A stretch of 64,000 nt of DNA from contig JAVKHQ010000001.1 of the NCBI GenBank assembly GCA_031459875.1, forward strand, positions 192,001 to 256,000, given 5' to 3'. Made by a program: the position numbers and the translations under genes. The notes under the pieces are model-generated. The model saw only the letters and a list, made by a program, of their open reading frames with translations. It was not told the DNA's origin and ran no database searches. Positions 1,300 through 17,711 of this stretch are shown here, in pieces; the first letter of the stretch is position 1; every line of letters starts with the position of its first letter. This DNA is from Candidatus Fervidifonticultor sextus (GTDB lineage Bacteria > Sysuimicrobiota > Sysuimicrobiia > Sysuimicrobiales > Humicultoraceae).

Positions 1300-1390
1300 G
1301 TCCCGAAGGGGCAAACCCGGAGCGATTCGGGGGCGCAAAGCCACGGGACCGGTCCGCCGTGGGCGGGCCGGTCGGCCGGGCTGCCGGAGA
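1300..1390 (+). ncRNA. c-di-GMP-I (GEMM) riboswitch aptamer #1
   Basis: GGGCAAACCC-GGA-GCGA-TTCGGGGGCGCAAAGCCACGGG...GCCGGGCTGCCG fits the GEMM consensus (GNRA loop, GCAAA motifs); G at the G20-equivalent position. Confidence 0.9.
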
Positions 1391-1400
1391 CGGTTCGGGT

Positions 1401-1432
1401 CTGCGGTCTCGACGGGACCGCAGTTATTTTTT
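1401..1432 (+). terminator. intrinsic terminator (expression platform of riboswitch #1)
   Basis: CTGCGGTCT/GGACCGCAG stem followed by TTATTTTTT. Confidence 0.8.
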
Positions 1433-1456
1433 GTGGCGGTCGCACGCGAGGGACGC

Positions 1457-3751
1457 ATGGACGAGAGCACGCTGCAGACGTTCAAGCGCGAAGCCGGCCT
1501 GGCCGGGGAGAGCCGCACGCTGGAGCGGGCCTTCGTGCACGCCCGGGCGCGGGCGCTGGCGCGGTCCGGGCAGTGGCTGCAGGCGCGCGACGCGTACCTG
1601 GCACTGGTCGACCTGGATCCCGACGAGCCCTGGGTCTACTGGGACCTGGCCGAGGTCTTCCAGATGCTGGAGGCCCGCGACGACGCCGCGGCCGCCTTCC
1701 TCACCGCCGCCGACAAACACCTGGGGCGCGGACAGACTGACCACGTGCTCCGCGCCTACCAGCAGGCCGCGGCGGTCTCCCCCAACGACCCTGCGGTGCA
1801 GGCGAAACTCGGCGATCCTGCGGCGCCGCCCACCGCGTCGCGACCCCGCCCGACCCCCGCACCATCCCCAGCCCCCGCCCCGCCACCTCACGACCCGCCT
1901 CCCTCGGCCCCGCCCGCACCGGCCCCTCCGGCCGCCCCGCCGTCCCCGAAGCCCGAGCGCTCCGGGCCTGCGCCGGCGGCATCTGTGCCCCCTGTCACAG
2001 CACCCCCTGGGGCCGAGCCGCCGGCTCCCGGGCGGGCGCCCCGCACGCGCCTGGGCGGAAAGACCGAGACCCTCGGACAGGTGCTCCTGCAGCTCGGCAT
2101 CATCACCCAGCAGCAGTTGGCCGAGGCCCTGGAGATCCAGTCCCGCACCGGGGAGCGCATCGGCCAGATCCTTCGCGACATGGGAGCCGTCTCTGACCAG
2201 GACCTGGCCCGCGGAATGGCGCACCAGTGGGGGTATCCCTACATGTCGCTGGCCGAGGCGAAGATCAACCCCGAGGTCGCCAAACTCGTCCCCCACGCCC
2301 TGGCGGTGCGGCACAAGTGCATTGCCCTGGACCGGCGCAACGGTCGCCTGGTCGTGGCCATCGCCGACCCCCTCAACGTGATCGCCGTGGACGATGTGCG
2401 GCTGATCACCGGGGCGGAGGTCGATCTGGTGGTCGCCACCGAGGAGGACATCACCAACGCCCTGGCCCGGGTCTACCAGCTCGCCGACAACCTCATCGAC
2501 CGGGCCATCCGGGAGTCGGTCACCGACTACGCCGTCGAGTTCACCGACGAGGACGCCTCGGTGGAGCAACTGCGCGCGCTGACCGAGGAGGCCCCGGTCG
2601 TCAAGCTGGTCAACCTCATCATCGACGAGGCGATCAAGCAGAACGCCAGCGACATCCACGTGGAGCCGCACCGCAACGGGATGTGGATCCGCTATCGGGT
2701 GGACGGCGTGCTCCGCGACGTCATGAACCCGCCCAAGCACCTCAAGGCGGCGCTGGTGTCCCGCATGAAGATCATGGCCGAAATGGACATCGCCGAGCGC
2801 CGGCGGCCGCAGGACGGCCGGGTCCACCTCACCGCGGACGGACGCACCATCGACCTGCGCGTCTCCACGCTGCCGACCATGTTCGGCGAAAAGGTGGTCC
2901 TGCGCATCCTGGACCAGTCCTCGGCCCTGCTGGGGCTGAGCCGGCTGGGCTTCCCCAGCGGGGTGCTGCAGCAGTGGGAGGCCGCCACCAGCACGCCCCA
3001 CGGGATGGTGCTGGTCACCGGCCCGACCGGCAGCGGGAAGACGACCACCCTCTACGCGACCCTCTCCAAGCTCAACACGCTGGACCGCAACATCGTGACG
3101 GTCGAGGATCCGGTCGAATACCAGATCCCCCGCATCAACCAGGTGCAGGTGAACGTGAAGGCGGGCCTGACCTTCGCCAGCGGGCTGCGCAGCATCCTGC
3201 GGCAGGATCCCGACATCGTCATGGTGGGGGAGATTCGCGACCGCGAGACCGCCGAGATCGCCGTCCAGGCCGCGCTGACCGGCCACCTGGTCCTCTCGAC
3301 CCTGCACACCAACGACGCGGCGGGCGCCGTCACGCGGATGGTGGACATGGGCGTGGAGCCCTTTCTCATCAGCTCGTCGTTGATCGCGGTGCTGGCCCAG
3401 CGGCTCGCCCGCGCCATCTGCCCCCGCTGCAAGGTGGCCTACACGCCGCCGGCGGACGCGCTGCGCCGCCTGGGCGCCGACGCCGTGGACGGGAATGTGG
3501 TCTTCTACCGCGGGCAGGGCTGCGACCACTGCCGGGGCACCGGCTACCGCGGCCGGATCGGCATCTTCGAGTTGCTGATGATCACCGACTCGATCCGGAA
3601 ACTGATCGTCGAGCGGGCCTCGTCCACCGAGATCAAGGCGCAGGCGATCCGGGAGGGCATGCGGACGCTCCGGGAGGACGCCTTCGAGAAGGTCCTCTCC
3701 GGGGTTTCGACGATCGACGAGATCCTGCGGGTCGTCTACGTGCAGGAGTAG
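1457..3751 (+). CDS. pilB: Type IV pilus assembly ATPase PilB/GspE family with N-terminal TPR, Pro-rich linker and MshEN-like domain
   Basis: GPTGSGKTTTLY, TVEDPVEY, LRQDPDIVMVGEIRD, STLHTND, CxxC...CxxC zinc site; tandem LGQVLLQLGIITQQQLAEALEIQ / RIGQILRDMGAVSDQDLARGMAHQ. Confidence 0.92.
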   Translation: MDESTLQTFKREAGLAGESRTLERAFVHARARALARSGQWLQARDAYLALVDLDPDEPWVYWDLAEVFQMLEARDDAAAAFLTAADKHLGRGQTDHVLRAYQQAAAVSPNDPAVQAKLGDPAAPPTASRPRPTPAPSPAPAPPPHDPPPSAPPAPAPPAAPPSPKPERSGPAPAASVPPVTAPPGAEPPAPGRAPRTRLGGKTETLGQVLLQLGIITQQQLAEALEIQSRTGERIGQILRDMGAVSDQDLARGMAHQWGYPYMSLAEAKINPEVAKLVPHALAVRHKCIALDRRNGRLVVAIADPLNVIAVDDVRLITGAEVDLVVATEEDITNALARVYQLADNLIDRAIRESVTDYAVEFTDEDASVEQLRALTEEAPVVKLVNLIIDEAIKQNASDIHVEPHRNGMWIRYRVDGVLRDVMNPPKHLKAALVSRMKIMAEMDIAERRRPQDGRVHLTADGRTIDLRVSTLPTMFGEKVVLRILDQSSALLGLSRLGFPSGVLQQWEAATSTPHGMVLVTGPTGSGKTTTLYATLSKLNTLDRNIVTVEDPVEYQIPRINQVQVNVKAGLTFASGLRSILRQDPDIVMVGEIRDRETAEIAVQAALTGHLVLSTLHTNDAAGAVTRMVDMGVEPFLISSSLIAVLAQRLARAICPRCKVAYTPPADALRRLGADAVDGNVVFYRGQGCDHCRGTGYRGRIGIFELLMITDSIRKLIVERASSTEIKAQAIREGMRTLREDAFEKVLSGVSTIDEILRVVYVQE

Positions 3752-3758
3752 CCCGTCG

Positions 3759-4190
3759 CTACGGCTCCTGGTACGTGATCCCGCCGAACGACGACACGGT
3801 GACCGTCGCCGCTCCCGCCGCGTTCTGGACGGTCACCGCATAGGCCGACGATGGCTGCCCGAAGGCGGAGAAACGGACGGTAAGGGTCCCCGCCGCCGTC
3901 ACGCCCGGGGGGAGGTCGGCGCGCTCCACGAAGCCGCCGCCGCTGCGCGCGATGGTGTACGCACCTGAGGCGGCCGTGAAGGCCACAGTGTACGCGGCCC
4001 GCTCGGCTTTGGCCCGCTCCTGGGCGTGCCGCAGGTTCGCCGCCACCTGCGCCGCGCCGTAGCGCAGACGCTGCCGGGCCACGTGCCCCTGCCACCTGTT
4101 GGTGCCCAGCACGAGCAGGAGCGCCAGAAGCGCCGTGGCGATCACGACCTCCAGCAGGCCGAATCCCGTAACGGAGCGCTGCCGCGTCAC
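3759..4190 (-). CDS. Minor pilin / pseudopilin (FimT/GspH-like)
   Basis: Class III signal G|FGLLEVVIATALLALL. Confidence 0.8.
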   Translation of the reverse strand: MTRQRSVTGFGLLEVVIATALLALLLVLGTNRWQGHVARQRLRYGAAQVAANLRHAQERAKAERAAYTVAFTAASGAYTIARSGGGFVERADLPPGVTAAGTLTVRFSAFGQPSSAYAVTVQNAAGAATVTVSSFGGITYQEP

Positions 4191-6229
4191 GGTGCGGCCT
4201 CGCGCCAGACCGGACGTACCCCGGCCAGCCCCTGCGTCTGAACTACCTCGAACAACGGCGTGGTCGGGAAGTACGGCGGGGTGAACCCCCGGCTCATCCG
4301 GCGGTCGTACCTGAAGTCGCGACCGTAGCCGGTCAGCGGGTTGCCGGTATTGGGGTCGAACGTGCCGAATGCGCCATAGTACTCCTCGATGATTCCACCG
4401 ATCAAGTGCACGGTCCCGCGCGGGGCGCCGGTGTTGTAGTTCTGCACGTTGACCGAACTGTTGTTGCCGTCGCCCAGATTCCCCGCCATCAGCACGGCGT
4501 GAAGTTCCAGGTCGTTGGGCGCCGAGGCGCTGATCCGGATGTCGTTGCCCGCCGAGTACAGGCCCAACACGTTGAGCGGGTTGTCGTTGGGGTTCGTGAC
4601 TTCCGGTGGGTCTTCGTAGCGCAGGTGGCCCGTAATGTCGATCCGGCCGGAGGCGACGATGGTGGTCTGCTCCTTCTCCTCGAGCGTCCCCGACAGCGAG
4701 AGGATCGTCCCCTGCACGTAGATGATGGTGGCGTTGGCATTGCCGGGGCCCTGCCAGCCCTTCGGCACGCCAGCAAAGGTCCGGGTCTGCGGAGACGGCC
4801 AGGCTGTGTTCGTGACCGTCGTCGTCTGCCCGACCCGATCGACGGTGATGGTGACCGTCTGTGACCCCTGGACCAGGGTATAGACCGCCAGGTTGTTGCT
4901 TGGCCCGCCGAGGCTGAAGGTCAGGCTGTTGAGATTCCCCTCCACGTAGATGCCGCCGGCTAGCGACTCGCCGGCATCCGAGACGCCGTTGCCGTTGCCG
5001 TCGGCGACCGGTACATAGATGCCGTTGGGCACGCTGCTGGTGTTGTCCGGCAGTTCGGGCACGGCCTGGCGGATCTGCAAATTGGTCACCGGCGTGGTGT
5101 CCGCCGGATTGCGTCCGACGGCCACCCCCTGTTGATTGTAAGGGTTGGTCGGCATGGGAATTGCGGCCACGCCCCGTGTGAAGTTGGCCGCCGGATTGTC
5201 GTTGTCGTCGAGCAGGTTCGCTGGGGTGCAGTCGGGCAGCACGGGCGCGTCGCGTCGCACGCTGGCCACAACATTCTCGTTGGCCTGCAGCCGCACCGGG
5301 TTTCCGTTGTTGTTAAACCATGCGTAGGTGCTCACGCTGGTCAGACGGGTGGGCAGGTTGCCTGCCGGATCGCACGGCGTGCCGGCATCAGGGGTGCCGA
5401 ATTTGGGATAGAAGGCGAAGCGGAACTCGCCGTTGGTGTGGACGGGGCCGTCGAAGCTGGTGCGGCTGGTAAACCAGATCGCGCCCCCGGCCGGGGTCAT
5501 GTGGACGTGGGTAAACAGGGCGTACTGCGCGAAGCTCTGCCGGCGAACCTGGACGCTGAAGTCGTGGGAGAGCGTCACGCGGCGCCGGCCCTGCGGGGGC
5601 GTCCGGCCGTCGCTTGTGATCGCATAGGTGTAGTAGAACTCGTAGTGGTCGGGACCGAGTTGCTGGATGTACCGCTGCGGCTGCATCGGATCCGCCGGGT
5701 GGGGGGCCAGGCGCCTCGTGACCGTGACAGTGGCGGCGTAGCTCCCCTGGCCCAGGACATTCGATGGCGGCACGCCCGTGGCCACCTGCAGCTTGCGATG
5801 GGGGGTCGGCAGGCTCCAGTTGACCTCGAAGGTCACCGAGTTCGTTGCCGGCGTGGCGCCCAGGATGAACCGTTGCCCGTCGAGCACCAGGTAGTCGAAC
5901 AGGCCGAAGGAGTTCTGGGCGCTGATATTGCCTCCGGCATACCAAGTCGCCAGCGTCGTGCCGCTGAGGGAAGGATCCACGGTGGCGCGGCCAACGGGAT
6001 CAGCATTCATCAGAACCATCAGCGCCGAGCGGGCGGCATAGGCCCCGCCTTCTGCCGTGTTCAGGCTCTGAGCCCCCGCCAGCCTGGCGGTGCTCAGGGC
6101 GATCTCCTTGCCGCTGAGGTACAGGATGAGGGCGCCGACGATGGAAAGGACGAAGATCGTGGTGAGCACCGACAGCATGGCCAGACCACGCTGGCTTTGG
6201 ATCTGCCTGACCATTGCCTCCCTCCTCAT
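4187..6229 (-). CDS. Large PilX-like minor pilin/adhesin (DUF4900-like)
   Basis: RG|LAMLSVLTTIFVL prepilin-like N-terminus lacking E5; FDGPVHTNG and GYGRDFRYDRR...PPYFP motifs; Asn/Gly-rich. Confidence 0.7.
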   Translation of the reverse strand: MRREAMVRQIQSQRGLAMLSVLTTIFVLSIVGALILYLSGKEIALSTARLAGAQSLNTAEGGAYAARSALMVLMNADPVGRATVDPSLSGTTLATWYAGGNISAQNSFGLFDYLVLDGQRFILGATPATNSVTFEVNWSLPTPHRKLQVATGVPPSNVLGQGSYAATVTVTRRLAPHPADPMQPQRYIQQLGPDHYEFYYTYAITSDGRTPPQGRRRVTLSHDFSVQVRRQSFAQYALFTHVHMTPAGGAIWFTSRTSFDGPVHTNGEFRFAFYPKFGTPDAGTPCDPAGNLPTRLTSVSTYAWFNNNGNPVRLQANENVVASVRRDAPVLPDCTPANLLDDNDNPAANFTRGVAAIPMPTNPYNQQGVAVGRNPADTTPVTNLQIRQAVPELPDNTSSVPNGIYVPVADGNGNGVSDAGESLAGGIYVEGNLNSLTFSLGGPSNNLAVYTLVQGSQTVTITVDRVGQTTTVTNTAWPSPQTRTFAGVPKGWQGPGNANATIIYVQGTILSLSGTLEEKEQTTIVASGRIDITGHLRYEDPPEVTNPNDNPLNVLGLYSAGNDIRISASAPNDLELHAVLMAGNLGDGNNSSVNVQNYNTGAPRGTVHLIGGIIEEYYGAFGTFDPNTGNPLTGYGRDFRYDRRMSRGFTPPYFPTTPLFEVVQTQGLAGVRPVWREAAP

Positions 6230-6236
6230 CCCCTGG

Positions 6237-6836
6237 CTAGCGGCCGCGGAGTGCTACATCGCCGGCGAAGACGCGGCTGACCCCTCCTGCGGTCGTCGTC
6301 ACCGTGATCCGGATCCGCACGATACTCGCCAGATCCACGGGCGTAGATCCCAGTGAGCTGCCGGCCGCGTCGAAGTACTCCAAAGCCAGACCATCTCCCC
6401 CATCGGGCCTGACGACCAGAGAGGCCAGCGGCGCCGGCGGGCCCGCCGGCAGCGGCCCGCCTGCATCGGGATCCTCCTGCCGGGTGATGGTATCGGTGGC
6501 GGCATCGTAGGCGAAGGTCACGGTGTAGGGGCTGGCGGCGGAGAAGGGTGTGGCCTGCGGAACGAACAGCGTGACCTGCGTCGCGCCGGCGGCCGTGACC
6601 ATCTGGGCCCACCGGATTTCGTCGACGAGCGCGTCCAGGGCGGCGCGGACCTGGGACTGCGTCTGCACGAACTCGTTGGTCACCCTTGCCGACCGGGCAC
6701 CCGTCGCCACAAAGGCGTAGATGCTCCCCAGCGCCAGGGCGAGGAGGCTCATGGCAATGACGAGTTCCAGCAGCGAGACCCCCCGCGTCTCGCAAAGGCG
6801 GGTCGAGAAGGAGGAGATGCTGCGCCTACTGATCAT
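6237..6836 (-). CDS. Minor pilin (PilW-like)
   Basis: RG|VSLLELVIAMSLLAL. Confidence 0.8.
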   Translation of the reverse strand: MISRRSISSFSTRLCETRGVSLLELVIAMSLLALALGSIYAFVATGARSARVTNEFVQTQSQVRAALDALVDEIRWAQMVTAAGATQVTLFVPQATPFSAASPYTVTFAYDAATDTITRQEDPDAGGPLPAGPPAPLASLVVRPDGGDGLALEYFDAAGSSLGSTPVDLASIVRIRITVTTTAGGVSRVFAGDVALRGR

Positions 6837-7278
6837 CGAGCACCGTCGTCAGACTGACCAGGGGGTCTGTGTCGGGATCGGCCGGACGGTAGACGCGGAC
6901 TGTGGCCGTGGTGATGGTCAAGTTGTCGTCTTGCACGAAGTCCACCGCCACCTGAAACGTGTGCGGAGAGGGGTTCGCGACGCCGCTGTAGGGAAAGGGA
7001 AGCGGCAGGGCGGTGCGGGGCATCGGCCCCGAGTTCACCCACGTGTATGGGTTGGCGCTGGCCCGGATCTGCTCCATGATCTGCAGGGCGATGGTCGTGG
7101 CGGCCGCCCGTTCATTGGCACGGCCGGCGTGCGCCATCCCGACAATGAACGCCTGGAGGATTAACAGGGAGACTGCAGCGAAAAGCGACAGGGCGACGAG
7201 GAGTTCAAGATAGGTGAATCCGGTCCGGTCGCGGGACCCGGGGGACCGCGACCGTCCCGGCTCTTGTGCCGAAGCCAT
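6826..7278 (-). CDS. Minor pilin (PilV-like)
   Basis: TG|FTYLELLVALSLF. Confidence 0.8.
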   Translation of the reverse strand: MASAQEPGRSRSPGSRDRTGFTYLELLVALSLFAAVSLLILQAFIVGMAHAGRANERAAATTIALQIMEQIRASANPYTWVNSGPMPRTALPLPFPYSGVANPSPHTFQVAVDFVQDDNLTITTATVRVYRPADPDTDPLVSLTTVLDDQ

Positions 7279-7383: not shown

Positions 7384-7740
7384 CTACACCAACGCCGCAG
7401 CCAGCTGGCTGTTGCGCCGCATCTCGAGCCGGATGCGCCCCAGGTTGGCCTGCCGCGTCCCGACCACCACCAGCACCGCGTCCGGTCCGGCCGGCCCGAT
7501 GGCCACCGGCCCCTCGTCGAACTCCAAAAGCAGATTCCGCAACATGCCCCGTCCCATCTCCCGGCCCATGGAGTCGGAGGCGGCGATGTTGCTGGCGACG
7601 ATGGCACCGACGGCCTCCAGGTCCACCCCCTCCTCCGATGTGATGCCTTCGACCACGAAGCCGTCCCGGCCCACCACCAGCGCGGCCAGCACGCCGTCGA
7701 TCTTCGAGAGGTCCAACAGCACGTCTTTGAGCTGCGACAT
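7384..7740 (-). CDS. Roadblock/LC7 domain protein (MglB-like)
   Basis: GVLAALVVGRDGFVV...LLLEFDEG...ANLGRIRLEM. Confidence 0.85.
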   Translation of the reverse strand: MSQLKDVLLDLSKIDGVLAALVVGRDGFVVEGITSEEGVDLEAVGAIVASNIAASDSMGREMGRGMLRNLLLEFDEGPVAIGPAGPDAVLVVVGTRQANLGRIRLEMRRNSQLAAALV

Positions 7741-7782
7741 CTTCGCTCCCTCCATCGGTCGGTTGTCCGGCTCCCGCCTGCG

Positions 7783-8598
7783 CTACGGCCTCCCGGGAGA
7801 TGGGACGCCCATCAGCCCCCGGAGTTTGGCCAGGGCCGAGGCGAGCACGCGTGACACATGCTTCTGGGAGATCCCGATGCGCCTGGCGGCTTCCATCTGG
7901 GTCATGTCCGTGTAGAACAGGTAGTAGAGCACCTTCTTCTGCAGGCTGTTGAGGGATTCCATGGCCTCTGTGAGCATGACGCGGTCTTCGATGGGCAGCT
8001 GGAAGCTGATGTGCGACCGGTGCCGGATCCGCTCCCGGTCCACCCGCAGGTCGCCGTTGTCATCCTCGGTCTCCAGCGAGATGGTGCGCAGCACCTCGCG
8101 CGTCCGGAGGATCTCCAGGAGCCCCTCTTCTTCGATGTTGAGTTCCTGGGAGAGATCCTCGAGCCCCGGGAACCGGCCGGTCTCACTCACGTACTTGCCC
8201 ACCGCCTGCTCGATCTGCGCATTGAGTTTCTGGAGCCAGCGCGGCCTGCGGATCGTGTCGCGCTGATCGCGCAGGTAGTGGCGGATCTCGCCGCGGATGA
8301 GGTAGCTGGCATAGGTGGCGAACTTCGCCCCTTTCGTCGGGTCGAAAGCCGAGATGGCGTTGAGCAGTCCGATGTAGCCCACCTGCACGAGGTCATCGGA
8401 GGGGACGCCGGAGAAGATGAACTCGGCGGCAATGCGCCGGACCAGTGGTGTGCACGCCAGGACGACCCGCTCCCGCGTGGCGGGAGCATGCGTTTCCACG
8501 TACTCGGCCATCAGGGCATCGACGTCGTCATACGCGGGGGTGTCAGGCTGGGTTGGACTCTGCCGTTCCACACGGCGCTGCACAGTGCGGGCACCCAT
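7783..8598 (-). CDS. Alternative sigma-70 factor, SigB/SigF/SigG-like
   Basis: DDLVQVGYIGLLNAISAFDP...FATYA..IRGEIRHYLRD; region 4 TQMEAARRIGISQKHVSR. Confidence 0.9.
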   Translation of the reverse strand: MGARTVQRRVERQSPTQPDTPAYDDVDALMAEYVETHAPATRERVVLACTPLVRRIAAEFIFSGVPSDDLVQVGYIGLLNAISAFDPTKGAKFATYASYLIRGEIRHYLRDQRDTIRRPRWLQKLNAQIEQAVGKYVSETGRFPGLEDLSQELNIEEEGLLEILRTREVLRTISLETEDDNGDLRVDRERIRHRSHISFQLPIEDRVMLTEAMESLNSLQKKVLYYLFYTDMTQMEAARRIGISQKHVSRVLASALAKLRGLMGVPSPGRP

Positions 8599-8618
8599 GG
8601 CGCGCCTCCCCTACCACG

Positions 8619-8648
8619 AAAAAACCTCCTGGGGCTGCCCCAAGAGGT
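8619..8648 (-). terminator. intrinsic terminator (expression platform of riboswitch #2)
   Basis: ACCTCTTGGGG/CCCCAGGAGGT stem followed by a U-run. Confidence 0.8.
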
Positions 8649-8660: not shown

Positions 8661-8735
8661 TTTCGGCAGCCCGGCCGACCACGAACTCGGTCCCGAGGCT
8701 TTGCGCCCCCACCTTACGATGGGTTTGCCTTTTTC
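8661..8735 (-). ncRNA. c-di-GMP-I (GEMM) riboswitch aptamer #2
   Basis: Minus strand AAAGGCAAACCCATC-GTAA-GGTGGGGGCGCAAAGCCTCGGGACC...GGTCGGCCGGGCTGCCGAAAG. Confidence 0.92.
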
Positions 8736-8780
8736 GAGGAACCGTATGCAGTTGTTCTGCCCGACGATCCAGGCCCGTTT

Positions 8781-9668: not shown

Positions 9669-10445
9669 CTAGACCTCCTCCTGCACCTTCTTCTGCCAGA
9701 ACCCGCCGAGGCCGAGCAGGACGAACCCTACCACCCACAGCGCGTTGATCCCGTGCACCTGCGAGTACAGGTCGTACCAGGTCAGCAGCGCGTAGCCCAG
9801 GCTGGCGGCGGCCAGGCAGAGCGCGGCGGCCGTCACGGCCAGCCAGGGATAGGCCGACAGGCCGCCGCGGAACCCGATGGCCGGCACCAGTCCGGCGGGA
9901 ATCAGGAACACCGCCGCCGTGGGGTAGAACGCCGAGAGGAATCTGGACATCAGGCCTGTCGAGCTGACCACGATCGGCTCCAGGATGTAGACGAACCCGA
10001 CAGCCCACCCCGCGACACCGAAGCCGAAAAGCGCCAGGCGGACCGACCGATCGACCATGGGGAGCACCAGCCGGACTTCCAGGGCCAGCGCGGCGGCTAA
10101 CAGGACGTAGAAGGCCACGAAGAATCCGTCCGCGACGGACGGGTAGGGCAGCGCCTTCTGGCCCCACCACTGATCGAAGGCGAAGATGGCGCGGCCGGCC
10201 GTCCACACCAGCGCGGCGGCCGCGCCGGTCGCCCAGACCCTCCGTTCGGGATCGCCGCGCGCGTAGGCACGGGCCGCGGCGGCGCACCCGATCCCCGCCA
10301 GCAACGGGGCGGCCACCTGCAGGACGGTCGCCAGGACGTGGCGGGCCACCCGATCCTGGAGACTCCCGCCTTCGAACCCGTAGGCGTAGGCGACGGCGGC
10401 GATCAGGAAGCCGGCGGCGATCAGCACCGGCCAGCGTCGCGTCAC
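9669..10445 (-). CDS. Multi-pass membrane protein (about 7 TM, sensor-domain-like)
   Basis: Repeated hydrophobic helices; ERRVW..., PYPSVADGFFVAFY motif; GTGA overlap with upstream gene. Confidence 0.65.
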   Translation of the reverse strand: MTRRWPVLIAAGFLIAAVAYAYGFEGGSLQDRVARHVLATVLQVAAPLLAGIGCAAAARAYARGDPERRVWATGAAAALVWTAGRAIFAFDQWWGQKALPYPSVADGFFVAFYVLLAAALALEVRLVLPMVDRSVRLALFGFGVAGWAVGFVYILEPIVVSSTGLMSRFLSAFYPTAAVFLIPAGLVPAIGFRGGLSAYPWLAVTAAALCLAAASLGYALLTWYDLYSQVHGINALWVVGFVLLGLGGFWQKKVQEEV

Positions 10446-11308
10446 GGTGCGCCTCCACCCGCCGCGCGGTCCTCCTGCACCGAGCGTTCGGCGGCGGCGA
10501 TGGTCCGGTCCATGAAGGCGCGCCCGGCGACGGCCACAATGGGGGCGCAGGCGGCCTCGACGATCGCCCGCCACGCCGATTCCGGCAGGGCGGGGGCCTC
10601 AATCCGGTCGCCGTGCACCCGGCCGCCGTATCCGGCGAGCGCCCTTTCCAGCGCTCCCAGGAACAGGGCCGCCAGCCGCGGCCCGCGGAGTCGCGCCACG
10701 CGCGCCGACACGTCGCTCAGGATGGCGGGCCACGGGTGCGGCGGCGGCTCGGGGATCGCGATCGCGGGAAGATCGCGCTGGACCTCGCCGGCCGCAGTGT
10801 ACGGCACCACCTCTTGCGCGGGCGGGGCCAAGTCCGGGAGCGTCGCGCGCTCGGTGCCCGCAGGTCCGGCCGCGAAGACGGGCGCGGCGGCCGCGGGGCG
10901 GCGCGGCACGAAGAGCCCGTCTGGCGCCACCCCCGGCGGCGCAAACGGGGAGTCCGGGGCCGGCTCGACGTCTGCGGTCGGGTCTGCGGCCTGGGGCAGC
11001 GTGCCGATGTGCACGCTGACCGCCCCGCCCCGCGCCGCGAGGTCCCGGAGGAGGTGGTGGCCCGGCAACACCGGGAGCAGAGCCTCTTCGCCGCCGGCCT
11101 CGAAGTACCAGGTGTCCTGCGGCGACCCGCCCTGGATCCACAGGACGCCCTCCAGGTGGTCGTCGCTGGCATAGACGCCCGCATCAAATCCCCGTGCCGC
11201 CAAGTGGGCCGCGAGGCGGTCGATGTCCACCTCGGCCCCCGGGATGCCGGCGAACAGCGCCGGGCCCGCGCGGATGCGGTCGAAGATCTCCCGACGGGTC
11301 GCCGGCAT
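10442..11308 (-). CDS. Hypothetical protein (N-terminal PATAN/DUF4388-like segment, Pro/Ala linker, helical C-terminus)
   Basis: IDRLAAHLAARGFDAGVY...EGVLWIQGG; start is adjacent to the TAXI gene stop. Confidence 0.55.
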   Translation of the reverse strand: MPATRREIFDRIRAGPALFAGIPGAEVDIDRLAAHLAARGFDAGVYASDDHLEGVLWIQGGSPQDTWYFEAGGEEALLPVLPGHHLLRDLAARGGAVSVHIGTLPQAADPTADVEPAPDSPFAPPGVAPDGLFVPRRPAAAAPVFAAGPAGTERATLPDLAPPAQEVVPYTAAGEVQRDLPAIAIPEPPPHPWPAILSDVSARVARLRGPRLAALFLGALERALAGYGGRVHGDRIEAPALPESAWRAIVEAACAPIVAVAGRAFMDRTIAAAERSVQEDRAAGGGAP

Positions 11309-11309
11309 G

Positions 11310-12278
11310 CTACTTGATCCCGAATTCGCGGTAGTAGCGCAGGGCGCCCGCGTGCATGGTGATGGGCATGCCGCGGCGGGCCGAGGCGGTGGTCACATCG
11401 CGGCCCCGCACGTGCGCCGCGTGCAGGCGGTCGGTGTTCTCCCACAGGGCCCGGGTCAGGGCGTAGATGAGGTCGGGATCCACCTCCTGCCGCGTGACCA
11501 GCATGGCCATGACCGCCAGCGTCTCCACCGGCTCCGTCTGTCCCCGGTAGGTGTTCGCCGGGATCGTCACCCGCGTGTAGTACGGGTACTGCTCCTTGAG
11601 CAGCTCGTAGGCCTCCCTGGGGATGGACAGCAGCTTCACCTCGCGGCTGGCCGCGATGTCCTGGACGGCCGCCGTGGGATGGCCGGCGGTGATGAACGCC
11701 GCGTCCACCACCCCGTCCTTGAGCTGGTCGGCCGCCTCGGCGAAATTCAGGAAGTCGGGCCGCGTGTTGTAGTACCCGACTTCAAAGACCCGCATGATCT
11801 GCCGGGCGTTCACCTCGGTGCCGCTGCCCGGCGCGCCGACGGCGATGCGCCTGCCCTTGAGGTCGGCGATGCTGTGGATGTTCTTGGACCGCAGGGTGAC
11901 GACCTGGATCGTCTCGGGGTAGAGCATGGCCATACCGCGCAGGGAGGCGATGGGGTCCCGCTTGTTCCCGATCCGGTCCATGAACATCTCGATGCCGTTG
12001 AAGGCGTAGTAGGTGATGTCGTTCTGCACGAAGGCCACCTGGACGTCGCCCCGCTGCAGGAGGCGGATGTTGGCCACCGAGGCTCCCGAGGTCTGGGCGG
12101 TGGCCTGGACGTTGGGGACCTTCTGGCTCCACAGTTCTGCGAGCGCAGCCCCCAGCGGGAAGTAGACGCCAGCGGTGCCGCCCGTGGCGATGGCGATGAA
12201 CGTCCGCTGTTGCGCGGCCGCTGGCCACACGCCGACCGCCAGCAGTGCGCCGGTTGCAATCAGGAGCATCCGTCTCAT
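11310..12278 (-). CDS. TAXI-family TRAP solute-binding protein
   Basis: Signal peptide; IATGGTAGVYFPLG, TSGASVANI, LYPETIQVV, VGAPGSGTE, MHAGALRYYRE. Confidence 0.9.
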   Translation of the reverse strand: MRRMLLIATGALLAVGVWPAAAQQRTFIAIATGGTAGVYFPLGAALAELWSQKVPNVQATAQTSGASVANIRLLQRGDVQVAFVQNDITYYAFNGIEMFMDRIGNKRDPIASLRGMAMLYPETIQVVTLRSKNIHSIADLKGRRIAVGAPGSGTEVNARQIMRVFEVGYYNTRPDFLNFAEAADQLKDGVVDAAFITAGHPTAAVQDIAASREVKLLSIPREAYELLKEQYPYYTRVTIPANTYRGQTEPVETLAVMAMLVTRQEVDPDLIYALTRALWENTDRLHAAHVRGRDVTTASARRGMPITMHAGALRYYREFGIK

Positions 12279-12323: not shown

Positions 12324-13445
12324 CTACCGTTGCACCAGCTCAAACCGCCCTCCCCGCACCACCGCGACAGCGACCGGCCGGTCCGGCGCGCCCCACCGAT
12401 CGAAGGTGATCTCCCCGGTGGCACCGGGGAACCGGCGCACGCCCTGGAGGGCCGTCCGGATCTGCGCCGGCGTCCGCCCGCCGCGGCGGATGGCAAACGC
12501 CACGACCTTCAGCGCGTCGTAGGCCTGGGCCGCAAAATGGTCGGGCATCTCACCGTACTTGCGGCGGTACTTGCCGACGAACTCCTGCACGCCGGGCAGC
12601 GGTTCGGTGGGCACGAAGGCCGCCGGCAACACGAGCCCCTCGGCCGCGACTCCGGCCCATCGCACCAGATCCTGCGAGTACAGGGCGTCGGAGCCCGCGA
12701 CCACGACGCGGACGCCGCGGGCCTGAAGGGCCTGGAGGATCAGGGCGGCCTCGTCGGGGTAGCCCGCGATGAAGACGGCGTCGGCGCCGTCGGCCACCAC
12801 GCCGTTGGCGTGGCGGGTAAAATCCTCGTCGCCATCCCGATACAGCCGCGTGCCCACGATCTCCCGGGACAACCCTCTGACGCGCTCCGCAAAGGCCCGG
12901 GCGACTAAGGTCCCGTAGTCGTTCGCCTCGTGAATGATGGTGAGGCGGCGGGTACGCCGCCTCCCCACCAGGTAGTCGGCGAGCATCCGGGCCTGCGCCG
13001 GGGCAGGCAGCGACGTGCGGAACACGGACGAGCCTGCATAGGGGATCGTGCCGGTGGCCCCGGGGCTGACGAGGGGGATGCCGGCCCGCTCGGCCATGGG
13101 GGCGACGGCCGTCGCGGTGGCATCGGTCAGCGGTCCCACGATGGCGACCACCCGGCGCTCCAGCATCTGGGCAAAGGCGCGCCCGACCTCCTCGGTGCTC
13201 CCCCGGTCGTCGAGCACCAGGAGCGTGAGGGCCGCTCCGGCGACGCCGCCGCCGGCGTTGATCTCGTCGGCGGCCAGCGTGGCGCCCCGCACAGCCGACC
13301 GCGCCGCGGCGGGCACGCCGCTGGTCAGCGGGGCGAGCACGCCGATGGCGATCGTCTCCCCCGCCCCGATCCGCGATCCGGCGCACCCGGTCAGGAGCGT
13401 ACCAGCGAGCGCCACACCCAACGCGAGGACTCGGTTGCGCGTCAA
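12324..13445 (-). CDS. LivK-type (branched-chain amino acid) ABC solute-binding lipoprotein
   Basis: Lipobox LTGC; IGVLAPLT, ADEINAGGGV, AAQAYDA, GATGEITFD. Confidence 0.85.
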   Translation of the reverse strand: MTRNRVLALGVALAGTLLTGCAGSRIGAGETIAIGVLAPLTSGVPAAARSAVRGATLAADEINAGGGVAGAALTLLVLDDRGSTEEVGRAFAQMLERRVVAIVGPLTDATATAVAPMAERAGIPLVSPGATGTIPYAGSSVFRTSLPAPAQARMLADYLVGRRRTRRLTIIHEANDYGTLVARAFAERVRGLSREIVGTRLYRDGDEDFTRHANGVVADGADAVFIAGYPDEAALILQALQARGVRVVVAGSDALYSQDLVRWAGVAAEGLVLPAAFVPTEPLPGVQEFVGKYRRKYGEMPDHFAAQAYDALKVVAFAIRRGGRTPAQIRTALQGVRRFPGATGEITFDRWGAPDRPVAVAVVRGGRFELVQR

Positions 13446-13466
13446 CGGTCACCGCCCCACAGAAGC

Positions 13467-13498
13467 AAAAACGCCCTCCGGCCGAAGGCCGAAAGGCA
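13467..13498 (-). terminator. intrinsic terminator (expression platform of riboswitch #3)
   Basis: GCCTTTCGGCC-TTCG-GCCGGAGGGCG followed by TTTTT; cUUCGg loop. Confidence 0.8.
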
Positions 13499-13510
13499 AT
13501 CCGGCTCCAC

Positions 13511-13600
13511 CCCTTCGGCAACCCGGCCGGCCGCGGAGTCGCCGCAGACTCCACGCCCCCGTGGCTTTGCGTCCCCACCTTGCGGCGGGTTTGCCTGTTC
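13511..13600 (-). ncRNA. c-di-GMP-I (GEMM) riboswitch aptamer #3
   Basis: Minus strand ACAGGCAAACCCGCC-GCAA-GGTGGGGACGCAAAGCCACGGG...GCCGGGTTGCCGAAG. Confidence 0.92.
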
Positions 13601-13655
13601 GGAGGTCGTCTGCTCCTCCAGTATGTTCCCCGACCCGGCTCCGCCTAGTCCTCCA

Positions 13656-14645
13656 CTAATTCTCCCCGAGGCGGCGGCGGAGTTCCCCAATCTCGCCCGG
13701 GATCGACAGCAACCGGCGGTAGAGGGCCGTCACATTGGCGACGTACCACTGCGTTTCGGCGTAGGGCGGGATGCCCTCGTACCGCTCCACGGCCCCGCGC
13801 CCGGCGTTATAGGCGGCCAGGGCCAGATGCGCGTCCCACCGGAACTGATCCAGGGCGCCCCGCAGGTATCGGATGGTCCCGTAGAGGTTCTGAACCGGAT
13901 CCCACGGATTGACGCCCAGCGCCCTGGCGGTCTGCGGCATCAACTGGCCCAGCCCCATCGCCCCCGCCCGCGAGCGCGCGGTGGGCTGAAAACCTGATTC
14001 GATCACGACGAGGGCGACCACCAGGCGGGGGTCCAGGTTGAACTGCCGGCTGTAGCCGAGCAACGCGTGGGCGATAAGGTCGGCTTCCCGGGCGGCCAGC
14101 CGCGGATTGTACGAGCGGGCGATGAGGTCGTAACTGCGCACGCTGAGCACCCATGCTGCGGCGCGGCCCGGCGAAAGCGCCCTGGTCTGGGCGACCTGCG
14201 CCTCCAGCGGCGCCGGCAGCGGGCCGACGGCCCGCAGGGCCTGTTCGGCCATCTGGCGCACCTCAGGCGACCCGCGGGCCGACAGCGCCTGCCGAAATGC
14301 CGAGGCCGCCTCCTCGGCGCGGCCCGAGCGGGCCAGGAGGTGGCCCTGCCACAGGAGGATCGTCGCCTCATGCGGGGCGAGGTCGGCCGCGCGCGCCACG
14401 GAACGGTGTGCGCGCAGCACGTCGCCGCGGTGGAACTGGACGACGCCCAGCCACAGCCACGCGTAGGGATCGGTCGGCCGCTGGGATGCCGCGAGGGTGA
14501 AGAGGGCCTCCGCGTCACCCAGTCGGCCCTGCGCGAACCTCGCCGCGCCATCGCGCAGGGTGGCCGCATCGGCCCTCGCAGCCAGCAGGAGGGCTCCACA
14601 CAGCCCGGCCACCAGAGCCGCCCCCGGTCGCCGGCGCGCCGTCAC
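13656..14645 (-). CDS. Secreted TPR + SLT lytic transglycosylase
   Basis: Signal peptide, TPR helices, then IESGF...[10 protein letters not shown]...ALAAYNAG...[13 protein letters not shown] start overlaps the roadblock stop. Confidence 0.85.
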
Positions 14646-15001
14646 GTCAGTTCCTCGGCGATCTCGGCCCGGCGACGGCGGATCTGCATGCGGGCCCGGG
14701 CCAGGTTGCCGCCGGCCTCCAGCACGGTGGCCAGGTAGTGGGTCGGTCCCAGGACCACGGCCAGCACGGCCAGGTTGTCGGTGGTCATCGTCAGGTGGTC
14801 CAGGTCGCCGCCGTCCAATTTGCGCAGGCAGTACGCCCCGACCTTGATGAGGGCCGCCAGGTCGGCCGCTGCAGCCTGCAGGTCCTGCGCCCCGCTCTTG
14901 GACACGGCCTCGATCACCTGCCCGTCCAGGCCCAAAAGCGCCACCGCGCGCGTATCTTCCCCGATGAGGTCCTGGAGGATGCCCCGCAGTTTCGTCGTCA
15001 T
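14642..15001 (-). CDS. Roadblock/LC7 domain protein (second MglB/MglC-like)
   Basis: [15 protein letters not shown]...[13 protein letters not shown]. Confidence 0.8.
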
Positions 15002-15105
15002 GCTGGCCACCGGGCAGCCGGGGTATTTCGCCGCCGCCGAGTCGCCTCCTTCGCAAAACAGGAGATGCCCGAGGGAATCGCGTACCAACCGGACGGGACC
15101 GTCCG

Positions 15106-16083
15106 ATGCCGTCTGACGCGGTCGAGCGCATTCGCATGCACCGGCGCATCCTGGGGGCGCGGTGGGTGCAGCACGTGGCCCACATCCCGCGGGCCAGCCC
15201 AATGTGGCGGGATGTGGCGCGGATGGACCGACACATGCTGGCGGGCATGGACGCCCTGGTGGACGCCGCGACGACGGGCCAGGTCGAGGCGTTCGGCGAG
15301 TTCGCCGGCCGGCTGAGCCAGGAGGCCTTCGCCCTCCAGGTACCGCTGGACGAGGTGATCCGCGCCCTGCTCCAGATCAAACCCGTGATTCTGGACTTCC
15401 TGGAAGAGGGGACGGCCGGCCGCCGTCTCGATGTGGAGACCGTGCAGCTCCTCAACCGCCTGATCTCCGTGGGCGTCCTGGAAGCCATCCGCCGGCACGA
15501 GCGTCACCGGGATCGCCGCGCCCTGGCCCTGCAGGAACAGATCGACGAACTGCGCGAGCGCCTGCGCCGTCAGGTCCTCGTCGACCCCGTCACCGGATTG
15601 TTCAACGCCAACTCTTTCGCCGCGGCCGTTCGGCGGGAGGTCCTGCGCAGCCGGCGCTTCGCGCGGACCTTCACCGTCGGGCTCGTGGCCCTGGACCAGG
15701 AGGACGAACTCCGCGAGGCGCTGGGCGAAGACGGCCTGCGGGCCGTCGCGATCCAGCTGGCCGACAGCCTGACCCGCTCCACGCGACAGGTGGACGTTCG
15801 GGCGGCGCTGGGCGGCGGACGGTTCGGCCTGATCCTCCCGGAGACCTCCATTGACGGGGCGTTTGTCCTCGCGGAGCGGCTCCGCCAGGCGATCGAGCGC
15901 AGCGCATTCGCGTTGCCCGATCACCCCTATCCCATGACCCAGACGGTCAGCATCGGTCTGGCCTGCTTCCCGCGGGACGGGGAAGACGACCAGGCGCTGC
16001 TGGCGAGGGCGGAGGAGGCACTGGCCCGGGCGCGGGCAGGCCGGAACACCACGGTCGCCGCGGCCACCGCGCAGGACTTCTAG
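15106..16083 (+). CDS. Degenerate GGDEF-domain protein with N-terminal helical (RsbRD_N-like) domain
   Basis: [22 protein letters not shown] (I-site intact, active site degenerate), [10 protein letters not shown]. Confidence 0.85.
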
Positions 16084-16094
16084 GAGGCCCGTCC

Positions 16095-17711
16095 TCACCG
16101 CTCGCGCCACATCCGCAACTGCACCTCGAACGGCGGCTTGTCCCGCAGGATCCGGAGGAAGACGTCCACCAGCCCCGGGTCCAGCGCCGACCCGGCCATG
16201 GTCCGCAGTTCGGCCATGGCCTCCTCCACGGTTCGACCGCGGCGGTACGGCCGGTCGGAGATCAGCGCGTCGAAGGTGTCGGCGACGCGGATGATCCGGG
16301 CGCCCACCGGAATGGCCGTGCCGGCCAGCCCGTCGGGATACCCGCTGCCATCCCAGGCCTCCTGGTGGGAGCGGACGTAGTCCACCAGTGGCCGGAACGG
16401 GGCCATCTCGCTGAGGATGCTGGCGCCGCGCTCCGGGTGGCGGTTCATCACGGCCCGTTCCTCGTCGGAAAGCGACCCGCGCTTGCGCAGGATGTGTTCC
16501 GGCGTCGAAATCTTCCCGATGTCGTGCAACAGGCTGGCCCACCGGATCCGCTCCACCTCTTCGGCGGGCAGGCCCAGCTCCGCCGCCAGGGCGACGGCCG
16601 CGCTGGCGACGCGCTGCGAGTGACCCCGCGTGTACGGGTCCTTGGCCTCCAGCGCGGCGGCCAGCATGTTGACGGCGCTGAGCTGGAAGTCGGCGGCCCA
16701 CCCCTGCATCCGCGCATCGTAGATGAGCAGGGAGGCCATCTCCGTCAACTGCCTGACGGCGTCCACAGCCTCCTGGCTGAAGAGCCGCACCTCCCGCCTC
16801 CCCAGAAAGAGCGCACCGATGCTGAGGCCCTCGACCCGAAACGGGAGCAGGAGCGCAGAGCCGGCCGCATCGCCGCCGAAGACGCCGACCCACCGCGGGT
16901 CCACCGACGCATCCACGACCGACTGGAGCCGACCCCCATCCAGCGCAGCCTGGAGGACCGCCACCTTGGGCAGCACCTCGCCGCGCGGCCGCTCGCCGCC
17001 TGGCGGGCCGGCGCTGGCCTCCACCACCGGGCGGCCTTCGATGTCCAGCACGATCACCAGGCCGGTGGCGGCGTCGGCCAGCCGCCGCCGCGCACAGGCC
17101 AGGAGGACCTGCGCACGCCTGGGGAGGTCGAGGGGCGCCATGTCCATGAGCGCGGCGCGGATCTCCGCTGCGGTCTCGGCCTGCCGGGTGAGTTGGCGGG
17201 CACCGCGCAGGGCCGCCGCTTCGGCTTCTCCCCGTCGCTGCTCGATCAGGCCTACCAGGACGCCCATAAGCAAAAGCAGCGCCGCCCTCGGCAGCACGGC
17301 CGCGGAGGGCTCCATCCGGAGCGAGGCGGCCACCGAGAAGCCGGTGGCGGCGAGCCAGCCGCCGGCTACGCCCGCGGCCAGCGTGCGCCCGGCGGTCCCC
17401 CAGATCAGCACCGGCACATAGAAGAAGTAGAAGAAACTCGCCAGGCCCCCGGTCTCGTAGACGATGAACGACACGATGGCGAGTTCGAGAACCGTCCCGG
17501 TGTAACTCGCCGCCGGGCGCGGTCCCGTCGACCGCTGGGCCAGCGCGCTCAGCAGACCGGTCGCAAAGAGGAGCACCAGCAGCAGGACGACCGGCGAGAG
17601 GATCGCGGGCCCGGTCGGCGTGCCGATCAGGAGCACCGAGAGGCCGAAGAGCACCGCGAACCCCCGGAGCGACAGCGGCCACCACTCGATGCCACCGCGG
17701 ACGGTCATCAT
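16095..17711 (-). CDS. Membrane-anchored GAF + HD-GYP phosphodiesterase-family protein
   Basis: N-terminal TM helices; LEAKDPYTRGHSQRV, LHDIGK, HQEAWDGSGYP, VADTFDAL, RPYR. Confidence 0.88.
   Translation of the reverse strand: MMTVRGGIEWWPLSLRGFAVLFGLSVLLIGTPTGPAILSPVVLLLVLLFATGLLSALAQRSTGPRPAASYTGTVLELAIVSFIVYETGGLASFFYFFYVPVLIWGTAGRTLAAGVAGGWLAATGFSVAASLRMEPSAAVLPRAALLLLMGVLVGLIEQRRGEAEAAALRGARQLTRQAETAAEIRAALMDMAPLDLPRRAQVLLACARRRLADAATGLVIVLDIEGRPVVEASAGPPGGERPRGEVLPKVAVLQAALDGGRLQSVVDASVDPRWVGVFGGDAAGSALLLPFRVEGLSIGALFLGRREVRLFSQEAVDAVRQLTEMASLLIYDARMQGWAADFQLSAVNMLAAALEAKDPYTRGHSQRVASAAVALAAELGLPAEEVERIRWASLLHDIGKISTPEHILRKRGSLSDEERAVMNRHPERGASILSEMAPFRPLVDYVRSHQEAWDGSGYPDGLAGTAIPVGARIIRVADTFDALISDRPYRRGRTVEEAMAELRTMAGSALDPGLVDVFLRILRDKPPFEVQLRMWRER

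Follow-up and report, generated by a model that had tools for sequence, protein, structure and literature searches.

We conclude that the locus described here belongs to a conserved type IVa pilus (T4aP) region on the chromosome of an uncultured Sysuimicrobiota (CSP1-3) bacterium, and the most likely role of its central riboswitch, R2, is to turn off a dedicated sigma factor, which appears to drive pilus and c-di-GMP genes. In our best overall explanation, which we regard as probable when taken as a whole, the window, i.e. the complete stretch of 64,000 nucleotides that was analysed, represents the regulatory half of this region. High c-di-GMP would shut off the pilus sigma factor via RNA, with feedback by phosphodiesterases, and the system is thus a likely T4aP counterpart of Cd1/SigD of C. 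difficile. The aptamers, terminators, synteny and motif enrichment presented below were computed here.

Three c-di-GMP aptamers in a conserved type IVa pilus region

A preliminary description of this DNA had reported three clustered c-di-GMP aptamers, each followed by a terminator, and all of them are real. The aptamers exceed the gathering scores of Rfam (with RF01051 alone 49.4 bits for R1, 70.1 bits for R2 and 58.5 bits for R3, cut-off 35) and lie within 12.3 kb, which is matched by 0.67% of random placements; genome-wide there are 11 such aptamers in 3.05 Mb. The three longest stems among 9 terminator-like sites in positions 1-20000 are those behind the aptamers.

1300..1388, + strand: R1, c-di-GMP-I aptamer before pilB (RF01051, 49.4 bits)
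1401..1433, + strand: intrinsic terminator after R1 (stem 1401-1423)
8661..8738, - strand: R2, c-di-GMP-I aptamer immediately upstream of the sigma gene (RF03167, 71.6 bits)
8614..8648, - strand: intrinsic terminator after R2 (stem 8648-8624); antiterminator formed by its 5' arm and loop together with the 3' end of the aptamer
13513..13604, - strand: R3, c-di-GMP-I aptamer (RF03167, 60.3 bits)
13462..13498, - strand: intrinsic terminator after R3 (stem 13498-13472)

The genes listed in the preliminary description (MshEN-PilB, pilins, sigma factor, two roadblock proteins, TPR-SLT, GGDEF and HD-GYP proteins) were recovered by profile search, but the list had left out the five genes under R3, which encode LivK-like and TAXI binding proteins, two PATAN-like proteins and a membrane protein.

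1..1185, - strand: DnaB-like ATPase of 524 aa, continuing beyond the window edge; order conserved in relatives
1457..3751, + strand: TPR-MshEN-PilB type ATPase (T2SSE; profile search)
3759..7278, - strand: variable minor-pilin cassette, PilV-, PilW-, PilX/DUF4900- and FimT-like (labels by analogy)
7384..7755, - strand: Roadblock/LC7 (MglB-like) protein 1, immediately downstream of the sigma gene
7783..8598, - strand: SigB/F/G-like group-3 sigma factor, proposed pilus sigma factor (profile search)
8873..9664, - strand: PATAN/DUF4388-like lead with C-terminal winged helix (atlas scores 0.89-0.91; model and fold search)
9669..10445, - strand: membrane protein, no Pfam or NCBIfam match, conserved in relatives
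10442..11308, - strand: weak PATAN-like lead (family-bearing matches 0.86 or lower)
11310..12278, - strand: TAXI-family solute-binding protein without adjacent permease
12324..13445, - strand: LivK-like solute-binding protein without adjacent permease
13656..14645, - strand: TPR-SLT lytic transglycosylase (start inferred from stop/start overlap)
14642..15001, - strand: Roadblock/LC7 protein 2
15106..16083, + strand: helical domain, coiled coil and degenerate GGDEF domain with intact RxxD, candidate c-di-GMP receptor
16095..17711, - strand: membrane-GAF-HD-GYP protein, HQE variant

One of the roadblock proteins scored above the profile cut-off and the other was weak, and the single profile used for an MglA-like GTPase, PF03029, gave only one P-loop match below the cut-off. 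The fold search matches of the PATAN-like protein at 8873..9664 were filled by the winged helix and not by the PATAN-like domain, and the two PATAN-like proteins gave no significant match when their profiles were compared. Among the four prepilin-like genes, three showed weak N_methyl matches below the cut-off and one encodes a DUF4900 protein.

The window PilB scored 669.8 against a cut-off of 675.65 with TIGR02538 and 652 against 630 with the GspE model; the context of pilT, pilC and pilin genes favours a T4aP assignment. Its suggested role as a c-di-GMP binder agrees with the MshEN motif model NF053729 (55.7 bits, cut-off 38), but in the first motif the Arg is replaced by Thr, and this Arg is missing from the TPR-type or first PilB in every related locus aligned. 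In VcMshE such first-motif changes cost less than fivefold according to the available part of PMC5013675. The second PilB (PilB2), located just off the window, harbors a canonical MshEN motif, and we consider that both ATPases may bind the ligand.

The T4aP region runs past the window edge into pilB2-pilT-pilC-pilA, and the dnaB-like gene is the head of an operon of dnaB-like, MerR-HTH, DUF6812, pilB2, pilT and pilC genes. The term "island", which had been applied to the locus, does not fit: its GC content is 70.3% compared to 70.1% in the genome, the gene order with the alaS-ruvX-mltG-yqeG flank is kept across relatives, and there was no integrase or transposase among the 21 proteins scanned. 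Neither is it self-contained, as it holds no active cyclase, the four GG(D/E)EF proteins are encoded elsewhere, the pilus core lies off the window and the predicted regulon is genome-wide. Synteny across relatives revealed co-conservation of genes and switches, but among the parts listed in the preliminary description only the riboswitch-sigma-roadblock-pilB link is kept beyond the family. The conserved core is the riboswitch followed by the sigma gene (28 of 31 orthologous loci from four families), and the adjacent switch is absent at 3 of 10 sigma loci outside the family. The pilB switch, minor-pilin, GGDEF and HD-GYP genes are patchy among relatives; R1 is often lost or decayed, and minor-pilin homologs occur at the same site in 4 of 20 family loci.

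The sigma factor and its predicted regulon

The proposed pilus sigma factor contains regions 2, 3 and 4 without region 1, i.e. a group-3 architecture. Its best family was TIGR02980 (SigB/SigF/SigG) with 181 bits, which is below the cut-off of 234.35, and the cyanobacterial SigF model NF005644 gave 158 bits, below the cut-off of 261. A partner switch of the RsbV/RsbW type is typical of the SigB/SigF/SigG subfamily; a STAS anti-anti-sigma domain was found in none of five genomes of 96-100% completeness. The sigma gene directly heads the pilus motor genes in five loci of family f2 and in one locus of family f4. The following putative promoter elements were located:

1218..1246, + strand: candidate housekeeping (sigma-A-like) promoter of the R1-pilB transcript (by eye, 7/12 consensus, similar in relatives)
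1276..1302, - strand: SigB/F-like motif GACTA-N15-GGGCATA facing the T4aP core operon (top-scoring site of the genome; 12/12 related loci)
8781..8809, - strand: candidate sigma-A-like promoter of the R2-sigma transcript (by eye, 8/12 consensus, conserved in relatives)
13624..13650, - strand: SigB/F-like motif feeding R3 (p = 0.003 vs 1197 background windows)
17741..17767, - strand, approximate coordinates: SigB/F-like motif upstream of the HD-GYP gene (score 12.9, exceeding the 99th percentile of the background)

A sigma-70 promoter scan returned 0 sites at its threshold, below which both sigma-A-like candidates lie. The matrix of the SigB/F-like motif, which was trained only on the sites of 12 relatives upstream of the dnaB-like gene, marks R3 and 7 of the 8 non-window switches at p < 0.05, and neither R1 nor R2. 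Overall, sites of the motif lie at pilA, pilT, minor-pilin cassettes, c-di-GMP enzyme genes and most of the eight non-window switches, and pilin genes of families f2, f4 and f5 are likewise preceded by it. In its strict form it had 0 matches in genome G031, preceded pilM in only 5 of 30 loci and, outside the family, marked few switches (5 of 21). We infer that the motif is read by the pilus sigma factor.

An alternative would be that the switches are genuine but local, with the sigma factor being a redundant paralog or a stress sigma factor, another sigma factor reading the motif and R2 having little effect. Indeed, the genome encodes three close copies, since the sigma factor has two close paralogs with near-identical residues in regions 2.4/4.2, one of them with its own motif-like promoter, and these paralogs might recognise the motif without any control by R2; the total of fourteen sigma-70 proteins and the patchy accessory genes point in the same direction. 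We nevertheless consider this alternative improbable, because motif and pilus targets persist in single-copy genomes (five genomes with a single such sigma factor gave 25 motif matches, of which 16 precede pilus or GGDEF genes, and the reversed control gave 0), because throughout the order the sigma gene is part of the pilus locus, and because the other sigma factors of the genome, as judged by eye, resemble RpoD, ECF, SigH and a short FliA-like protein.

In one RNA run from the same study, the contigs (300 of 423 covered) were mostly partial and less than 90% alike.

Predicted direction of the switches

R2 and R3 are predicted to be transcriptional OFF switches. In ligand-free prefix folding at 37 °C, the antiterminator of R2 had a probability of 0.90-0.92 just before the terminator was complete, and that of R3 a probability of 0.93-0.94 at the same stage, with the terminator nearly complete. 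At equilibrium the R2 terminator reaches 0.98 with the aptamer present or absent, so that switching must be kinetic. Folding of R2 transcripts cut at the terminator loop gave no signal (0.19 vs 0.18) and was superseded by the scan of all lengths. For R1 the closing helix barely forms in prefix folding, and an antiterminator drawn by eye was dropped at a folding probability of 0.12 or less.

The same architecture is apparent in the family: in 20 of 21 sigma leaders the called terminator begins 9 nt or more beyond C92, and the aptamer-terminator duplex is better than shuffles (p < 0.1) in 18 of 20. Cognate aptamer-terminator pairs also scored better than swapped ones (p = 0.0004; n = 33, with related loci that are not independent). 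The antiterminator helix is conserved, with 84% of cells paired, and did not covary beyond shuffles (276 of 500 reach it); the terminator helix covaries (reached by 0 of 500 shuffles) in an alignment that is imperfect, since a register slid by one column scored higher. Outside the family, a clear OFF architecture was found in only 1 of 7 sigma leaders.

The other eight switches of the genome, two of which precede HD-GYP genes, look like ON-type switches: the terminator overlaps the closing strand of the aptamer in 8 of 8. Such an ON-like terminator was also assigned to 8 of 8 family switches before HD-GYP genes, although tallies in relatives are approximate, because in some leaders (e.g. L118, L127, L135) the automatically called terminator was visibly wrong. 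Two other minor-pilin cassettes of the genome (contig C12) carry ON-like switches. We discarded a general ON-gating of alternative minor-pilin cassettes, as it applies only to these two; in relatives, 2 were OFF-like and 3 unclassified.

The locus had previously been interpreted as a switch for pili or attachment. Control by c-di-GMP at the RNA, sigma factor and probably protein levels converges on type IV pili, but attachment is probably not turned on, since with the predicted OFF direction of R2 and R3 high c-di-GMP should lower the pilus programme. A self-contained module, with pili for surface attachment being switched on at high c-di-GMP, would be in line with the passing MshEN score of PilB, with the ON-like switches at the two cassettes and with the pili of C. 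difficile, which are turned on by c-di-GMP via a riboswitch (PMC6366702). It conflicts with the OFF architecture of R2 and R3, with a locus devoid of an active cyclase, with a pilus core and regulon outside the locus and with a GC content and gene order that are not island-like, and we regard it as still less probable than purely local switches.

c-di-GMP enzymes, receptors and ligand identity

The GG(D/E)EF active site of the GGDEF protein in the window is degenerate in 11 of 11 orthologs and the RxxD is kept in 11 of 11; the protein may act as a c-di-GMP receptor. An RsbR-like globin identity considered for its N-terminus was not supported: there was no Pfam match, and the fold matches listed were all GGDEF proteins. 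The HD-GYP protein has HD and GYP, with HQE for HHE in 11 of 11 complete alignment rows, and an RxxR in the window protein. At the GGDEF position at which cGAMP-making Hypr enzymes carry Ser/Thr, Asp is kept in all four GG(D/E)EF proteins of the genome.

G20, A47 and C92 are present in all three aptamers. A47 is a further ligand contact of the class I aptamer, next to the other two. G20 and C92 contact c-di-GMP according to the available part of PMC6140456. That the aptamers sense 3'3'-cGAMP as GEMM-Ib, or represent a GGC variant with altered specificity, is very improbable: RF03167 ("c-di-GMP-I-GGC") gave the best score for R2 and R3, and A20 occurs in two related aptamers (loci L117 and L222), but R1, R2 and R3 all have G20 and not the A20 of GEMM-Ib, R2 and R3 have A where the GGC model consensus has G (position 47), and no Hypr-type cyclase was found among 6 GGDEF domains.

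Proposed circuit

In the preferred reading, with c-di-GMP shutting off the pilus sigma factor, a housekeeping promoter would transcribe R2 and the SigB/F-like sigma gene. At low c-di-GMP the antiterminator would form, and the sigma factor and roadblock protein 1 would be made. The sigma factor would then open G(A/T)CTA-N15-GGG(C/T)ATA promoters of the pilus motor operon, pilA, a second pilT and minor-pilin cassettes, and further those of PilZ proteins, c-di-GMP enzymes and the majority of the remaining c-di-GMP switches. When c-di-GMP is high, the ligand-bound aptamer would keep the antiterminator from forming, transcription would stop and the pilus programme would wind down; R3 would likewise shut the binding-protein/PATAN operon. 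ON-type switches under the same promoter would raise HD-GYP phosphodiesterases, by which c-di-GMP would fall (negative feedback), and MshEN domains and the dead GGDEF protein could add post-translational sensing.

A more far-reaching reading, which is possible but rather doubtful in its entirety, is that the riboswitch replaces the anti-sigma partner switch as master control of the pilus sigma factor and closes a loop, in which the sigma factor transcribes cyclases, ON-gated phosphodiesterases and some of seven or more alternative tip (minor-pilin) cassettes and is itself turned off by c-di-GMP. If true, this would represent an incoherent feed-forward/negative-feedback circuit giving pulses or cycles of piliation, and the c-di-GMP level would choose which pilus tip complex gets built.

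Comparison with known systems

With it, a first regulatory circuit would be available for a phylum that is uncultured and widespread in soil and hot springs; two descriptions of this phylum do not mention pili, riboswitches or c-di-GMP in the main text. In this circuit a SigB/F-like sigma gene is itself preceded directly by a c-di-GMP riboswitch, and the promoter class and regulon that we predict are testable without culturing. In addition, ON and OFF class I switches are predicted in one genome, including control of c-di-GMP enzymes, a riboswitch target called rare (PMC6366702).

In C. difficile, the class I switch Cd1 (Cdi-1-3) precedes the flgB operon containing sigD (PMC6366702). Both systems share a class I OFF switch acting by termination (here predicted) with a motility sigma factor as relay, but here the sigma gene is the first gene behind the switch and SigB/F-like instead of FliA-like, and the system is predicted to act on type IVa pili instead of flagella. 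Cdi-2-4, in front of pilA1/pilB (PMC6366702), likewise governs type IV pilus genes, but is a class II ON switch, whereas the switch here is class I, predicted OFF and acts via a sigma factor.

According to the available parts of PMC2532724 and PMC7690835, SigF of Synechocystis is also a group-3 sigma factor and transcribes the major pilin gene, and PATAN proteins are linked to the pilus. The pilA1 promoter there (TAGGC/GGTAA) differs from the motif found here, SigF autoregulates, these parts mention no riboswitch, and the regulon that we predict extends to the motor operon and to c-di-GMP enzymes. SigB of Bacillus and Streptomyces shares TIGR02980 as best profile, the GGG.A. type -10 element and a similar spacing (PMC8346170, available part), and differs in that the sigma factor here is below the family cut-off, has another -35 element, pilus instead of stress targets and no STAS domain found. 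Compared to MshE of Vibrio cholerae, as covered in part by PMC5013675, the tandem 24-residue motif with its conserved LG, leucines and Gln is alike, and the motif 1 Arg is missing in the window PilB but not in the canonical PilB2. As in the MglA-MglB systems of Myxococcus and Thermus, roadblock proteins lie beside PATAN-like and pilus genes, but no MglA-like GTPase was found here with one profile; orphan MglB proteins were called uncharacterised in 2014 (both from the available part of PMC4316618). Every part of the system thus has a known precedent, and its novelty is the wiring, i.e. a new arrangement of these parts.

Aptamers and terminators of the locus

As had been proposed in the preliminary description, the window contains three GEMM aptamers; the Rfam search assigned them to the c-di-GMP-I clan, all of them pass the RF01051 cut-off, and each is followed by a terminator, these being the three longest stems of the 9 terminator-like sites in 1-20000.

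1300-1388, plus strand: aptamer R1, before pilB
7783-8598, minus strand: SigB/F/G-like group-3 sigma factor, the proposed pilus sigma
8661-8738, minus strand: aptamer R2, before the sigma gene
13513-13604, minus strand: aptamer R3, before the binding-protein operon

Alignment to the model places G20 and C92, described as the contacts for the two guanines of c-di-GMP (PMC6140456), in all three aptamers. The GGC-variant model gave the top score for R2 and R3, but since position 47 is A and not the G of its consensus, both are treated here as canonical c-di-GMP-I aptamers. The genome has 11 aptamers in total, and three within 12.3 kb are improbable by chance (0.67%). Two related aptamers (L117:9931-10008, L222) carry A20, a cGAMP-type or bispecific residue.

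Genomic context and conservation

The nearest named relatives of the sigma factor (96-99%) belong to Ca. Fervidifonticultor octavus, of a genus within Sysuimicrobiota/CSP1-3 (PMC11604079). The region is not the island it had been taken for, because its GC content matches that of the genome and its order recurs through the family as mltG-yqeG-HD-GYP-GGDEF-roadblock-TPR-SLT-R3-operon-R2-sigma-roadblock-pilB-dnaB-like-pilB2-pilT-pilC.

The locus observation is real and conserved, and its conservation is layered. Among 31 loci (32 taken around the best sigma match, minus one paralog identified by tree), an aptamer lies immediately 5' of the sigma gene in 28, i.e. 21/21 in the host's family and 7/10 outside; this link is the conserved core, and R1, the pilins, GGDEF and HD-GYP are patchy. 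R3 occurs in 15 of the 16 family loci holding TPR-SLT. R1 was detected in 4/13 loci spanning pilB and the dnaB-like gene that opens the pilus motor operon, one copy being truncated and two lacking a terminator, and two more loci retain relics. In L111 (G014:C355) the R1 site carries pilB in inverted orientation and has lost the aptamer. Homologs of the four pilins fill their slot in 4/20 loci, and two other genomes have a different cassette there (L163, L322). GGDEF and HD-GYP genes are found at 10/16 and 12/16 family loci, respectively, and both at 0/10 outside the family. At six loci of relatives, five in f2 and one in f4, merR-roadblock-roadblock-pilB follows directly behind the sigma gene. 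A sigma factor of this type is present in 86 of 94 phylum genomes, and c-di-GMP aptamers in all 41 tested.

Proteins and pilin cassettes

All proteins listed for the locus were recovered, with caveats on three motifs: the GGDEF active site is dead with RxxD kept (11/11 orthologs), HQE replaces HHE in the HD-GYP protein (11/11 complete alignment rows), and the window PilB lacks the Arg of the first MshEN motif. Beyond the left edge of the window are genes for a MerR-HTH protein, DUF6812, PilT, PilC and two pilins, together with another PilB whose MshEN is canonical. Intact GG(D/E)EF sites occur in four cyclases, all outside the locus, which look c-di-GMP-specific. Another degenerate GGDEF protein, also carrying RxxD, is encoded next to the pilM cluster (G000:C1:151933-152925). 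A second DnaB-like protein (window 1-1185; L008 11612-13186) heads the pilus motor operon in f1, f4 and f5 relatives, and a further one is encoded on contig C56.

The 3 Mb genome has at least seven multi-gene minor-pilin cassettes versus one pilMNO-type cluster; two cassettes sit behind ON-like switches (read-through when c-di-GMP is bound), beside a paralogous sigma. Going by translation only, housekeeping genes surround an integrase/transposase-like ORF and a small pair of PIN-like genes (window 30688-31977 and 49144-49766).

C1:155348-159644: minor-pilin cassette
Window 3759-7278: minor-pilin cassette
C12 (L007 4683-7407, 7760-11178): two minor-pilin cassettes
C65 (L167): minor-pilin cassette
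C37:10769-13715: minor-pilin cassette
C27:10710-15139: minor-pilin cassette
Window 36537-36610: tRNA-Gln

Direction of the switches

The direction of all switches is predicted from layout and folding. In R1-R3 the terminator starts 13-18 nt past C92. In the genome's eight other switches it overlaps the closing strand of the aptamer (8/8; the C19 hairpin is weak), which points to an ON layout. When growing transcripts were folded without ligand and read just before terminator completion, an antiterminator consuming C92 was predicted for R2 and R3 with a probability of about 0.9 at 37 C and 0.72-0.89 at 60 C. At equilibrium, the R3 terminator rose from 0.40 to 1.0 once the aptamer was fixed. Aptamer-terminator complementarity is kept in 18/20 family sigma leaders (p<0.1), and cognate pairs score above swapped ones. 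Counting against an OFF reading (termination when bound) are the antiterminator covariation, which did not exceed that of shuffles, the R2 terminator, which dominates at equilibrium with or without the aptamer, the sigma leaders outside the family, of which just 1/7 has a clear OFF architecture, and R1, whose folding supports neither direction. Among the 80 regions fetched from relatives (around 150 matches listed of 273 aptamer matches), the family switches that precede HD-GYP genes, which come from two ortholog groups, are ON-like in 8/8 cases, and the sole non-family one is OFF-like.

Promoter motif and predicted regulon

GACTA-N15-GGG(C/T)ATA precedes the dnaB-like gene in 12/12 relatives examined, and its -10 resembles that described for SigB promoters (PMC8346170). 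A matrix built exclusively from these 12 sites gave its top ranks within this genome to sites preceding the motor operon, one PilZ gene, a second pilT, pilA and several switches; lower in rank came another PilZ gene, one minor-pilin cassette, the window HD-GYP and a REC-GGDEF-HD-GYP gene. It marks R3 and 7/8 ON-type switches (p<0.05); R1 and R2 are left unmarked and are preceded by sigma-A-like elements (by eye). Off-locus switches exceeding the 95th background percentile number 36/57 classified in the family (four unclassified rows excluded) and 5/21 outside. In five genomes, strict patterns matched 14 times against 1 control match, with 8 of the sites preceding pilus genes and none lying in G031; in five genomes that have only one sigma of this type they matched 25 times against 0, with 13 sites preceding pilus genes and 3 preceding GGDEF genes (a handful of labels given by eye). 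Once relaxed, the motif is seen before pilin genes in f2 and f4, but before pilM in only 5/30 loci. The regulon assignment is a prediction from the motif. Since promoter-reading residues are nearly invariant among sigma orthologs and paralogs, the two sigma paralogs of this genome may share a regulon. A STAS domain was found in none of the five genomes searched.

An inverted repeat, TGGGCA-N10-TGCCCA (window 1262-1283), overlaps the motif-promoter -10, also falls within the R1 leader, and is a possible operator or leader hairpin. In relatives (L179, L213, L301; L226, L232, L235), genes behind c-di-GMP switches or the motif repeatedly encode G8/beta-helix and Mutator-transposase-like proteins.

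Proposed mechanism and comparison with known systems

The best reading, which we consider fairly probable, is that high c-di-GMP shuts off the pilus sigma through RNA, with feedback via phosphodiesterases. At low c-di-GMP, read-through at R2 would yield sigma and hence transcription of pilus and signalling genes; at high c-di-GMP, R2 and R3 would terminate and the ON switches before phosphodiesterases would open. The roadblock and TPR-PilB proteins may, together with the PATAN-like ones (assignments that are leads only), constitute an accessory of the pilus motor that has no GTPase, and the orphan binding proteins and membrane protein may act as sensory inputs.

Our search, largely outside subscription papers, turned up no publication describing a c-di-GMP switch immediately 5' of a pilus sigma; supplements such as Table S5 of PMC11604079 and riboswitch-survey gene lists might bear on this. 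The proposed mode of working is that described for Cd1 of C. difficile, which precedes the flgB operon with its sigD gene (PMC6366702), and the predicted output is similar to that reported for cyanobacterial SigF on pilA (PMC2532724; PMC7690835); the window's system reaches the profile cut-off of neither family. What is new is a variant wiring of kinds of control that are already known.
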